Notes under the pieces: model-generated
What the model was told of the DNA's origin: nothing
The model's database searches: none
The model's input: the letters and a program-made list of their open reading frames with translations, nothing else
Shown here: positions 3,212 through 34,457 of the stretch, in pieces
Layout of the letters: each line of letters opens with the position of its first letter
How positions within the stretch are numbered: the first letter of the stretch is position 1
Made by a program: the position numbers and the translations under genes
Origin: a phage
DNA: 64,000 nucleotides
Assembly: GCA_012813795.1 (NCBI GenBank)
Contig: GCA_012813795.1_4087.1
Reading direction: 5' to 3' (one strand)

Positions 3212-3299
3212 TTATTTTTCCTTTAAGGTTGGATATATGCCAGTGCACCAATACCGATAACAACTACAGTGAATACAACCAGAAATATATTAAGTTTCA

Positions 3300-18696: not shown

Positions 18697-19465
<769 letters not shown>

Positions 19466-19468
19466 ACA

Positions 19469-19601
<133 letters not shown>

Positions 19602-19602
19602 A

Positions 19603-19702
<100 letters not shown>

Positions 19703-19746
19703 ATAGGCACATACGGGTCTGCTTTTAAGCTACTGATTCGGGAATC

Positions 19747-19792
<46 letters not shown>

Positions 19793-19799
19793 CGTTCTT

Positions 19800-20018
<219 letters not shown>

Positions 20019-20027
20019 TAATACCCT

Positions 20028-20429
20028 TTAGTAGTTTAAGTCAGCGGCGTTGAACACACCGAGTGAAGTCTTACCACGTAGTTTAGGGGAAATGACATAT
20101 TTTGTCAATGTCTTTTTACCGTACCAGTACTCGAAATCTTTTTCTTCTACATACGGATTAGGGAAATCCCATTTGCGTTCTTTATGAATTTGCTTGGCCT
20201 GGACTTGAAGCTTTTCAACTTCATCTGGTGGTACAGTATCTACATTATTAAACTGCATGTACATACCTTTTAACCCATCAAGAATTAATTTTTCAGTTTC
20301 TTTAACTAATGTAATCTTTTCGATTCCAGTACTGATATTCATGTAGTCATCTACATAACCATTCCAGATAACAATCTCTGGATTACCTTCGATTCCCTGA
20401 AGCATCTTGATCAAGTCATTCTTTTTCAT
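20028..20429 (-). CDS. hypothetical protein
   Basis: 133-aa ORF. Confidence 0.5.
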   Translation of the reverse strand: MKKNDLIKMLQGIEGNPEIVIWNGYVDDYMNISTGIEKITLVKETEKLILDGLKGMYMQFNNVDTVPPDEVEKLQVQAKQIHKERKWDFPNPYVEEKDFEYWYGKKTLTKYVISPKLRGKTSLGVFNAADLNY

Positions 20430-20437
20430 TTGAATTC

Positions 20438-22078
<1,641 letters not shown>

Positions 22079-22263
22079 ATCACCAACTTTAATTAAAAAA
22101 ATGGATGGTGACGCTTTTAAACGCCGCTGTTAATTCAGCTTTATAACCACCCGTTTTAACTTGCCTTTCGGCTACCTTGACGTGGGGCGTACAGGCTACT
22201 AAAAGCAACTTCTGTAAACATATTTCCACGCCTTACCATTTTCATTATATCAGTACTTTTATC

Positions 22264-23385
<1,122 letters not shown>

Positions 23386-32272: not shown

Positions 32273-34171
32273 TTAAAAGAATATATCACGTAGTAAATGT
32301 TCTATAACAGGTGCTGTCCAGCCATTACCAAGCATTTTGTACGCTTGTGTTGAACTACTAACTTTGAAGTAGTTTACATCAATTCCTTGCAACATGCAAC
32401 ACTCTTGTACTGTTAAATGACGATAGTCCACATTTCGTTTACCCTTCTCAATCAGGAAGTTCCTGTTGATATCAGGGTCTTTGAAAACGATTTGTCTTCT
32501 TGACTTATTGAAGTACTGATTCGGATCTCCACCCTTGAAGTAGTTTGCGTCAATGCAATATGATTTATCACGATCAGTATACCAATTACCAGTTAGTATA
32601 TCTTGTAATTTTGGTGCTAAAATAAGAGGTTTTGGAATAAACAACTTATCCGAGCTATACCAGTAGTAACGTTGGCGATAATGTGCTGTATAATTTTGTG
32701 AATTTATCAAAATTGGTGTCATTTCCAACACGCCATTGATATAATCCTTGAAATCTTCCTTCATCTTAACATTCTCAAAAAGAACTTTCAAGTTAGGATT
32801 GAGACTTTTTATGTGCTGGTAAATATCAACCATTGTATGGAATAACATACCACGAGGATCATTCACACCGCCTTGTTTCCCAGCAACTGACCACGCTTGG
32901 CAGTTATGAACTACAATATTGTTCGCCGTATATGTGTTATCTACTGCAACTTCAATATTGTAAACGGTTTTCCATTCTCCGGTTGTGGTGTTCGATTTAA
33001 CACCTTTTACCCATGAATATGACCCATCATCATAGAATGCTTCATCTTTTCGGTGCTTTTCTTTTTTGTATGTTAATACGTAATACGGCTTCTGATTAAC
33101 AACACGTTCTTCTATAACTTTTGTTTCAGACGGTTTAAAGTATGTTATGTTAGAATGACGACCATACACATTCATAATTAGTTGTTGTATACCAAGAATA
33201 ACATTCTTTGATGTTGATGTAAATTTTAAACAATCATCTTTCTTGTCATGGTGACCATCTGCGTCAAAATAACCATCAATGAATGCTTTCTGATTAGCGA
33301 TACTTTCAGTGAAAAGTGTGGGGTGTACTTGTTTATTTGAAGCACCCTTACCCATTTGTTCACAAAATTCAACTAGTTCTTTTGAACAAATATAGAATTT
33401 ATAAGATGTTCTTTCTTTAACAAAATTATATTTCATATTCATACCATCAAAACATGAAACCAATTCATCAAATTCATCATGAGCACAGCAAATAAAAACA
33501 CGATATTGATAACTATTTTTTCTATTTTGTCGTTTTACTTTGTAAGTCCATCCATCACCCATAAATCTACCCATGAAATACCAAAAGCTTTCACTCTTGT
33601 TATGTTGAAAATTCACATTACAACGAACATTACATATAGCATGTTCTTCTGTGAGTTCATGTGCATCGATCCATGTAGGTTCTGTATATTCACGAACATA
33701 TTGTCGTTTTTCATTATCCCACTTCTTGCTCATTTTTCTCGCATAAAATGGATGATTATCAGTGCATTCAATTGGTATATGTCCCTGACCTGTGATGATT
33801 CTTGTTGGTGCAATCTTGCTACCAATACTCAATACTTTTTGGTATTGTCCAGTGTGTGTAAGAACCATATCACCAATTTTTATATCTTTTATATCTTTAT
33901 GACCTTCATTTGTCATGATCATGGTTCCTGCTGGGAAGCAAGGAAAACCACCCATCAGAAGATCTATCTTGTCCCATTCGATATCCCATTCTTTCCATCT
34001 AGTTACATCACCCAATTGGATGATATCAGGAAAGTTAGCCTGGGATTCAGCTATAGCAAATTTATCAATTTCAGATGAGTAGTACTTTTCAACTGGTATT
34101 CCTGCACTTTGCAAGGCCATATACCCAACACTCATCCCATTGAATAGTGATAGTACACGTATCGGTTCCAT
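32273..34171 (-). CDS. DNA (cytosine-5)-methyltransferase interrupted by an in-frame intein
   Basis: Motif I LFNGMSVG, then GGFP | intein | CQAWSVAG restores the catalytic PCQ motif; ENV motif follows. Confidence 0.85.
   Translation of the reverse strand: MEPIRVLSLFNGMSVGYMALQSAGIPVEKYYSSEIDKFAIAESQANFPDIIQLGDVTRWKEWDIEWDKIDLLMGGFPCFPAGTMIMTNEGHKDIKDIKIGDMVLTHTGQYQKVLSIGSKIAPTRIITGQGHIPIECTDNHPFYARKMSKKWDNEKRQYVREYTEPTWIDAHELTEEHAICNVRCNVNFQHNKSESFWYFMGRFMGDGWTYKVKRQNRKNSYQYRVFICCAHDEFDELVSCFDGMNMKYNFVKERTSYKFYICSKELVEFCEQMGKGASNKQVHPTLFTESIANQKAFIDGYFDADGHHDKKDDCLKFTSTSKNVILGIQQLIMNVYGRHSNITYFKPSETKVIEERVVNQKPYYVLTYKKEKHRKDEAFYDDGSYSWVKGVKSNTTTGEWKTVYNIEVAVDNTYTANNIVVHNCQAWSVAGKQGGVNDPRGMLFHTMVDIYQHIKSLNPNLKVLFENVKMKEDFKDYINGVLEMTPILINSQNYTAHYRQRYYWYSSDKLFIPKPLILAPKLQDILTGNWYTDRDKSYCIDANYFKGGDPNQYFNKSRRQIVFKDPDINRNFLIEKGKRNVDYRHLTVQECCMLQGIDVNYFKVSSSTQAYKMLGNGWTAPVIEHLLRDIFF
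32903..33940 (-). mobile_element. intein with LAGLIDADG homing-endonuclease domain (residues 78-423 of the methyltransferase ORF)
   Basis: Starts with Cys (CFPAGTMIM), TDNHPF block, two LAGLIDADG-like motifs (FMGRFMGDGW, AFIDGYFDADGH), ends VVHN then extein Cys. Confidence 0.8.
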
Positions 34172-34370
34172 CTATAATCCTTTATAAAATAAAATACTGG
34201 ACGAATATTCGCCCAGTATTGTCCTTTTTAATACTATTTAAAACTTATGTGGATTTCTCTTTTTAAGACCATCCAGTACATCAGTAGGTAGAATTTCACG
34301 GAATGACCCCACTGGGATAAGGATCATTACATATTTCAATTGGAGTTTCCTCGTTGTATAAGATTGATTA

Positions 34371-34399
34371 ATTGTATAATATTATTGCTCCATTGTCAA
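34371..34399 (-). promoter_or_regulatory. sigma70-type promoter upstream of methyltransferase gene
   Basis: TTGACA-N17-TACAAT on minus strand; a second TTGACG-N17-TATAAT lies at 34443..34471. Confidence 0.45.
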
Positions 34400-34457
34400 G
34401 CAAAATATAATTCCTTATACATTCTTTCTCTCTGATACAAACATTATATCTCCTAAT

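Follow-up and report, generated by a model that had tools for sequence, protein, structure and literature searches.

An intein with a LAGLIDADG homing endonuclease, predicted to splice, at the catalytic cysteine of a C5 DNA methyltransferase of Escherichia phage A4

Gene A4_120 of Escherichia phage A4 very probably encodes a precursor in which a splicing-competent intein, carrying a LAGLIDADG homing endonuclease, interrupts a C5 DNA methyltransferase between Pro77 and its catalytic Cys. The gene was found in a stretch of 64,000 nucleotides (nt) of phage DNA (contig GCA_012813795.1_4087.1; the whole stretch is called the window hereafter), the source of which was identified by megablast as phage A4 (ON286972.1) in reverse orientation, an Asteriusvirus jumbo phage of 355 kb with E. 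coli LF82 as its isolation host. In GenBank, A4_120 is labeled 'DNA-cytosine-methyltransferase', and no intein is mentioned. The parts of the open reading frame (ORF), in window coordinates and amino acids (aa) of the precursor, are the following:

32273..34171, minus strand: precursor ORF A4_120, ATG start, 632 aa plus stop, 73.8 kDa, made up of N-extein, intein, and C-extein
33941..34171, minus strand: N-extein, aa 1-77, with C5-methyltransferase motif I (LFNGMSVG) and, at its end, GGFP, the first half of motif IV
32903..33940, minus strand: putative intein, aa 78-423 (346 aa, 40.5 kDa), class-1 type, with an embedded LAGLIDADG homing endonuclease
33737..33940, minus strand: N-terminal splicing region, blocks A and B, with the nucleophile Cys78 and T137-D-N-H140 (TxxH; codons 33752-33763)
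33062..33604, minus strand: LAGLIDADG homing-endonuclease domain, ~aa 190-370, from the LAGLIDADG_3 match and the fold
33548-33577, minus strand: LAGLIDADG motif 1, FMGRFMGDGW, aa 199-208, acidic residue D206
33251-33286, minus strand: LAGLIDADG motif 2, AFIDGYFDADGH, aa 296-307, acidic residue D305
32903..32980, minus strand: C-terminal splicing region, blocks F and G, VYNIEVAVDNTYTANNIVVHN, ending in His422-Asn423
32273..32902, minus strand: C-extein, aa 424-632 plus stop (209 aa), with CQAWSVAGKQ at its start

An initial annotation, made from the letters of the sequence, had read this ORF as GGFP followed by a 346-aa insert running from Cys to VVHN and then by CQAWSVAGKQ, with two LAGLIDADG-like motifs in the insert, a restored PCQ catalytic motif, and a mature enzyme of about 286 aa. 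Each of these elements was recovered, on the minus strand, which the annotation had not named. In the precursor, the methyltransferase family PF00145 was matched (E=4.9e-29, 102.2 bits against a Pfam cut-off of 22) in three separate stretches, the first of which stops at aa 79. Splicing in silico raised the score to 123.6 bits and gave a single contiguous stretch over the junction (aa 4-125, profile positions 1-114), as in the orthologue of phage 121Q, and the spliced product, of 286 aa and 33.3 kDa, is equal in length to that uninterrupted protein. The residues of motifs I, IV, VI, VIII, and X are all present (F10-x-G12, P77/C424, E466-N467-V468, R499/R501, and G615-N616-G617), the last three in the C-extein as ENV (aa 466-468), RQR (aa 499-501), and GNGW (aa 615-618). 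Among sequences of the PDB, aa 2-81 align to the start of the catalytic domain of DNMT3A/B as far as the PC motif, and aa 424 onward align to M.HhaI from residue 81 and to M.HaeIII from residue 70-71. Because Cys424 (codon 32900-32902) is thus aligned to Cys81 of M.HhaI, the catalytic nucleophile of that enzyme, it is predicted to be the catalytic Cys of motif IV (PCQ), and the insertion lies exactly between the Pro and the Cys of this motif. The unspliced protein scored slightly below the cut-off of TIGR00675 (96.4 against 100.65 bits); the other NCBIfam matches were to dcm and, weakly, to intein-bearing archaeal proteins and an intein C-terminal model. In PHROGs, methyltransferase families were found at both ends of A4_120 and an intein-containing NrdD family over aa 78-435. 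A small C5 DNA methyltransferase of Dnmt3-like or phage type is the predicted host protein.

The comparison with related phages, using the in-silico spliced protein as a tblastn query, found a contiguous 286-aa orthologue, ~80% identical, in 121Q, PBECO4, phAPEC6, SP27, slurp01, and some thirty other Asteriusvirus-like phages. The junction peptide DLLMGGFP-CQAWSVAGKQGG is the same in 121Q and in the exteins of A4. At the syntenic position of Klebsiella phage RaK2, ORF194 (297 aa, 66% identical to the A4 exteins) is also uninterrupted and reads GGSPCTDVSFAGKQ. The insert was carried by only five phages, namely A4, JNE01, TH47, UE-S1, and ph0011. In blastn comparisons of all five occupied loci with 121Q, the alignments stop and restart at 3231-3234 and 3232, the codon boundary between Pro and Cys, with an overlap of 3 nt that arises because the intein and the C-extein both start with a Cys codon. 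The insert is therefore precisely absent from the intein-less homologues, and the syntenic locus of 121Q (gp91), PBECO4, phAPEC6, and RaK2, which lacks the 1038-bp insertion, has the form of an empty homing site. An artefact is not a plausible source of the empty allele, since more than 30 independent genomes have it, and in these alignments the empty site is the decisive comparative evidence for an insertion.

The same comparison bears on other readings, namely that the insert is an accessory or target-recognition domain, or that a group I intron or a free-standing homing-endonuclease gene has been mistaken for part of the ORF. Such readings have in their favour only the size of the insertion and its LAGLIDADG domain, and they are next to impossible: HINT blocks are found at both ends of the insert, its frame is continuous with that of the exteins and contains neither a stop codon nor a signal for an internal start, and the fold of the insert matches that of complete inteins. 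A normal target-recognition domain, named in the initial annotation as the alternative, was excluded, as the insert sits inside motif IV, away from the variable region that separates motifs VIII and IX, and has no counterpart in the more than 30 orthologues.

All the residues expected of class-1 splicing are present, namely Cys1, the TxxH of block B, the Asp of block F (D411), His422-Asn423, and Cys+1. In an alignment of 31 homologues, C78, T137, H140, D206/G207, D305/G306, and D411 are at least 90% conserved and K280, N423, and C424 are invariant, while some relatives have F/Y in place of the penultimate His. Searches with the intein alone recovered relatives down to E=5e-73. Hint_2 (aa 77-133; 36.7 bits, cut-off 28.4) and LAGLIDADG_3 (33.8 bits, cut-off 22.5) of Pfam were both found above their cut-offs; together with the E-values of PF00145 and of the intein search, these scores lie far outside chance. 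The N-terminal splicing region also matches the gp41-1 intein.

When the whole precursor was modelled with AlphaFold2 on the same alignment, the mean predicted local distance difference test (pLDDT) score was 78, with ~85-95 over most of the intein, and the model comprised a beta-rich HINT module and an endonuclease domain of two alpha-beta-beta-alpha-beta-beta-alpha halves. The top Foldseek match of the model in the PDB was the endonuclease-associated TliVMA intein (E=2e-17, target-normalised TM-score 0.68), followed by PI-SceI (in many crystal forms), PI-PfuI, and PI-PkoII, with a match probability of 1.00 for TliVMA, PI-SceI, and PI-PfuI. The endonuclease domain was matched by I-DmoI (target-normalised TM-score 0.63-0.70), and the exteins by DNMT3A. 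Like the A4 intein, TliVMA (7QSU/7QSS), PI-SceI (Sce VMA1), PI-PfuI, and PI-PkoII have a HINT domain split by a two-motif LAGLIDADG endonuclease, with Cys1, TxxH, HN, and Cys+1 in common (Foldseek E 2e-17 to 1e-8). They differ from it in that they are only 10-18% identical to it and reside in vacuolar-type ATPase, ribonucleotide reductase, or polymerase hosts. The A4 intein, of 346 aa, is also the smaller one and has no equivalent of the large extra DNA-recognition region of PI-SceI.

Some observations weigh against a splicing-competent intein. The score of the Pfam model Intein_splicing was below threshold (24.6 bits, cut-off 35.8), as were those of Hom_end_hint, under its curated cut-off, and Hom_end; TIGR01443 (intein_Cterm, aa 403-424) gave a weak match, also under its curated cut-off; and the confidence of the structural model was low at the junction residues 75-77 and 425-442 and at aa 529-582 of the C-extein. 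Two others, concerning saturation and regional divergence, are given below with the data to which they belong. As some intein models fall short, the assignment to the family is carried by Hint_2 and LAGLIDADG_3, by the motifs and the fold, and by the comparisons among phages. The low scores would also suit a splicing-dead relic, in which a 74-kDa protein with an interrupted catalytic loop would make the methyltransferase effectively a pseudogene. This we hold to be very improbable, given that C1, TxxH, the block F Asp, HN, and C+1 are all present and conserved, that the frame is open in five phages despite inteins only 55-77% identical, and that the exteins are under purifying selection with all methyltransferase motifs intact. 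The initial annotation as a whole proposed that a C5 methyltransferase is interrupted at its catalytic Cys by an intein bearing a LAGLIDADG endonuclease, and the computational tests all agree with it: the splice residues, the HINT and LAGLIDADG domains (both found inside a split PF00145), their folds, the empty orthologues, and the PF00145 match made contiguous by in-silico splicing.

Pairwise identity among the five Asteriusvirus inteins is 55-95%, and none of them has lost its open reading frame. Between JNE01 and TH47, for which synonymous divergence (dS) is unsaturated, the ratio of nonsynonymous to synonymous divergence (dN/dS) was 0.05 in the endonuclease domain and 0.08 overall. Between A4 and either JNE01 or TH47 it was 0.07-0.09 in the endonuclease domain, values that are rough because dS is near saturation in these pairs, and for the exteins it was 0.07-0.11. 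Because the endonuclease and the exteins are both under purifying selection, the notion of an intein decaying as a relic is argued against. A dN/dS of ~0.73 between the endonucleases of A4 and UE-S1, considered as a sign of positive or relaxed selection, was set aside, as these domains are ~40% identical and the estimate is unreliable.

The alleles are composed of parts with different histories. A4 shares 88-100% nt identity with UE-S1 on both sides of each splice junction, over ~110 nt of N-extein and ~70 nt of intein at the upstream junction and over ~70 nt of intein and ~100 nt of C-extein at the downstream one, and the C-terminal splicing region of A4 (32903..32980) is 100% nt-identical to that of UE-S1. 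The endonuclease core of A4 (alignment nt 601-840), on the other hand, is 85-92% nt-identical to those of JNE01 and TH47 and only 42-65% to that of UE-S1. At the protein level, it is 54% identical to that of P0002, the intein of an unrelated metagenomic C5 methyltransferase, against ~40% to the UE-S1 core; for the contig encoding P0002, the closest relative of the core, nothing is on record. Since the ends of A4 match UE-S1 and its core matches JNE01 and TH47, endonuclease cores have been swapped between alleles with common splicing ends, and on these alignments the A4 intein is chimeric and the A4 allele a mosaic.

In TH47, identity to the extein DNA of 121Q is 93-98% but drops to 75-82% at nt 181-420, a stretch that surrounds the insertion point (nt 231). 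A similar dip near the insertion was observed for UE-S1 (75-87% for the dips of both phages), with 93-98% identity chiefly at nt 421-600. These dips fit co-conversion of the flanks during homing and are suggestive of it, a reading weakened by the fact that the whole region is diverged among these phages (70-91% nt identity). As a separate observation, the exteins of A4 are themselves strongly mosaic, being 100% nt-identical to UE-S1 at nt 721-780 of the spliced gene and only 58-67% at nt 421-600, a block over which both UE-S1 and TH47 match 121Q at 95-98%. This variable block corresponds approximately to the region between motifs VI-VIII and IX, and the target-recognition region of A4, hence its methylation specificity, may differ from those of its relatives.

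A close metagenomic relative of the A4 allele, P0003 (SRR22973663_58642, locus L016 4001-5656), comes from a contig whose ORFs are small and phage-like. Its exteins resemble those of Asteriusvirus, and between them, at the site occupied in A4, lies an intein of 264 aa. The endonuclease of P0003 is degenerate, as the first LAGLIDADG half is lost and the second motif, FLCGLFSSKC, has no acidic residue; judged by its sequence, P0003 is a natural intermediate of endonuclease decay. Mini-inteins (P0039 and P0040) exist too. Such forms are the stages expected of a homing cycle.

Decay of the endonuclease thus occurs in the lineage, as P0003 and the two mini-inteins exemplify, and the A4 intein might in the same way splice with an inactive endonuclease, as a fixed and vertically inherited passenger in the five phages. 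We consider this unlikely, though not negligibly so. The LAGLIDADG motifs of A4 keep D206 and D305, together with the invariant K280; the low dN/dS of the endonuclease domain (0.05-0.09) indicates strong purifying selection; and the distribution is sporadic, with mosaic flanks and a recent exchange of endonuclease cores between alleles. The endonuclease of the A4 intein is accordingly predicted, with fair confidence, to be still active.

The insertion point is not restricted to Asteriusvirus. Full-length homologues of the A4 intein, with 27-31% identity, were found between Pro and Cys in Mannheimia phage 587AP2 (junctions GGTP/…HN/CQ, the slash marking a splice junction), Lactobacillus phage Nyseid, EBPR siphovirus 2 (gp44), the dmt gene of the P1-like RCS47 and OP279344, Propionibacterium phage B22 (gp50), and Pseudomonas phage Lana (SPD/…/CTHFS). 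A search of a collection of 5.8 billion proteins (E<=1e-10) returned 40 metagenomic matches, of which at least 33 have PF00145 together with Hint or intein domains. In every metagenomic sequence inspected, the intein lies between P (or D) and the C[Q/T/E/S] of motif IV. Four matches had no precomputed PF00145; three of the four passed the cut-off after in-silico splicing, and they are ~220-aa enzymes of the type 'PPC/SPDC … ENP'. Taken together, the same-site inteins of phages and of dozens of metagenomic sequences are 27-40% identical over their full length, with ends that are alike (CF[PTV]AG… …[IV]VHN), and their exteins belong to quite different C5-methyltransferase subfamilies, including the ~220-aa enzymes, with GenBank labels that say only methylase. 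Other members of the A4 intein family are found in NrdD, helicase, thymidylate synthase, and mycobacteriophage methylases. By these alignments, the Pro-Cys boundary of motif IV is a recurrent insertion point of one intein lineage in several C5-methyltransferase subfamilies. It looks like a lineage specialised on Pro-Cys catalytic codons, which hops between divergent subfamilies while endonuclease cores are exchanged as modules.

Some particularities of these relatives were also observed. In Mannheimia phage vB_MhS_587AP2 (locus L006 1264-3100), the gene is annotated as two overlapping coding sequences, a 'hypothetical protein' and a 'cytosine-specific DNA methyltransferase', and a stop codon is found ~20 codons past the C-terminal junction of the intein (…VVHN/CQSDKGGTVKASGGGFEWRE*), which points to a frameshift or decay in the extein, or to an error in sequencing. 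Directly downstream of this methyltransferase is a gene for an HNH homing endonuclease. A 341-aa intein is present at GGTP/CQAFSIAG of dmt in the Escherichia phage P1 isolate OP279344 (locus L009 2270-5311), RCS47, and Ro157c2YLVW; the intein-bearing P1-like protein has 1013 aa and is labeled simply Dmt. Many of the metagenomic homologues P0009-P0035 have Phe or Tyr in place of the penultimate His (…VFN/C, …TYN/C), and the exteins of this type have a Cys4 zinc-ribbon-like insertion (CxxC…CPxC) directly after motif IV.

The analysis above shows the anatomy, the precise insertion, the fold, the conserved residues, the sporadic distribution, the mosaicism, and the purifying selection; for splicing, methyltransferase activity, cleavage, and homing, we infer the following course from the established behaviour of class-1 inteins. 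By the canonical class-1 pathway, Cys78 would undergo an N-S acyl shift, and Cys424, the +1 residue, would attack the resulting thioester (trans-thioesterification). Asn423 would then cyclise with the help of His422, releasing the 40.5-kDa intein, and an S-N shift would join Pro77 to Cys424, so that the PCQ catalytic loop is formed in a 33.3-kDa, 286-aa methyltransferase collinear with its intein-free orthologues. Cys424 would have two roles, first as a splicing nucleophile and then as the nucleophile attacking C6 of cytosine. The precursor is expected to be inactive as a methyltransferase because the loop of motif IV is interrupted. In a co-infection, the endonuclease, freed or still borne by the precursor, would cut intein-less alleles, such as those of 121Q and PBECO4, over the empty site (...GGTGGTTTCCCA/TGCCAAGCCTGGTCAGTT...), and the intein would be copied in by recombinational repair, with co-conversion of the flanking extein DNA.

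Conditional splicing is conceivable because the +1 nucleophile is also the catalytic thiol and because Cys1 and Cys+1 are adjacent in the precursor; it could proceed through a redox-sensitive disulfide between these two residues or through a temperature- or time-dependent step. That the intein would by this means act as a post-translational switch, timing the C5-methylation of phage DNA during infection, is a speculative role that we regard as decidedly unlikely.

With respect to its genomic context, no compositional anomaly of the insert was found in GC content, which is 0.33 for the intein, 0.37 for the exteins, and 0.345 for the window. A hidden Markov model built from the 31 homologues and run against the six-frame translation of the window matched only the intein of A4_120, and no further inteins of this family were found there. 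Upstream of the methyltransferase start is an unannotated gap of 286 nt (34172-34457, minus strand), corresponding to one of only ~50 nt in 121Q. It is associated with two strong sigma-70-like promoter matches (11/12), at 34471-34443 and 34399-34371, a possible 29-codon ORF (ATGATCCTTATCCCA…TAA), and a terminator-like hairpin with a 12-bp stem at 34220-34193, ~20 nt ahead of the ATG of A4_120. Elsewhere in the window (19131-23260, minus strand), five phage tRNA genes are clustered (Thr-TGT, Asn-GTT, Met-CAT, Ser-ACT, and Ser-TGA), as expected in a jumbo phage.

Inteins are known for their preference for conserved catalytic motifs, and their +1 residue can itself have a function in the host protein. 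In phages, the intein-bearing actinobacteriophage methylases DNMT-1/2, both of the N6/N4 type (PF01555), have been listed (Kelley et al. 2016, PMC5050341), and another study analysed a methylase family that has two further insertions besides an intein (PMC9957025). The actinobacteriophage inteins are likewise phage-borne and sporadic, with LAGLIDADG endonucleases and evidence of horizontal transfer, although their hosts are phages of Actinobacteria and not jumbo coliphages. In the portions available of a 2025 actinophage survey from the Gogarten laboratory, the C-5 methylase (IPR001525) is among the invaded proteins, and no description of an insertion site at the catalytic Cys was found in those portions (bioRxiv 10.1101/2025.01.02.630785). 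Our literature search found nothing on an intein in Asteriusvirus, jumbo coliphages, or the five genomes, and nothing specific on an intein at the catalytic Cys of C5 methyltransferases. In papers on ICP1, CB7, BASEL, and BMBphi, inteins appear only in other genes or only in reference lists, and the genome paper of UE-S1 calls UES1_76 only a methyltransferase, the intein being unmentioned. Because phage methylase inteins are documented and insertion in catalytic motifs is textbook knowledge, the A4 intein is an unannotated member of a well-known kind of element, not a new kind, and would not surprise a specialist.

The genes of A4, JNE01, TH47, UE-S1, and ph0011 bear no database label beyond 'methyltransferase' or 'hypothetical protein', while the real product is predicted to be a 286-aa enzyme and a free homing endonuclease, a caveat for inferring phage anti-restriction methylation from gene lists. 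The element is also a candidate Cys+1 intein or LAGLIDADG nuclease for engineering. The Pro-Cys boundary of motif IV, for which no description was found in the literature, is a widely used intein insertion point across C5 methyltransferases. At this one site, in one phage genus, empty sites, two endonuclease types on near-identical splicing ends, the chimeric intein of A4, and the decayed form in P0003 make up a natural series in which the homing cycle and the modular exchange of endonucleases could well be studied.

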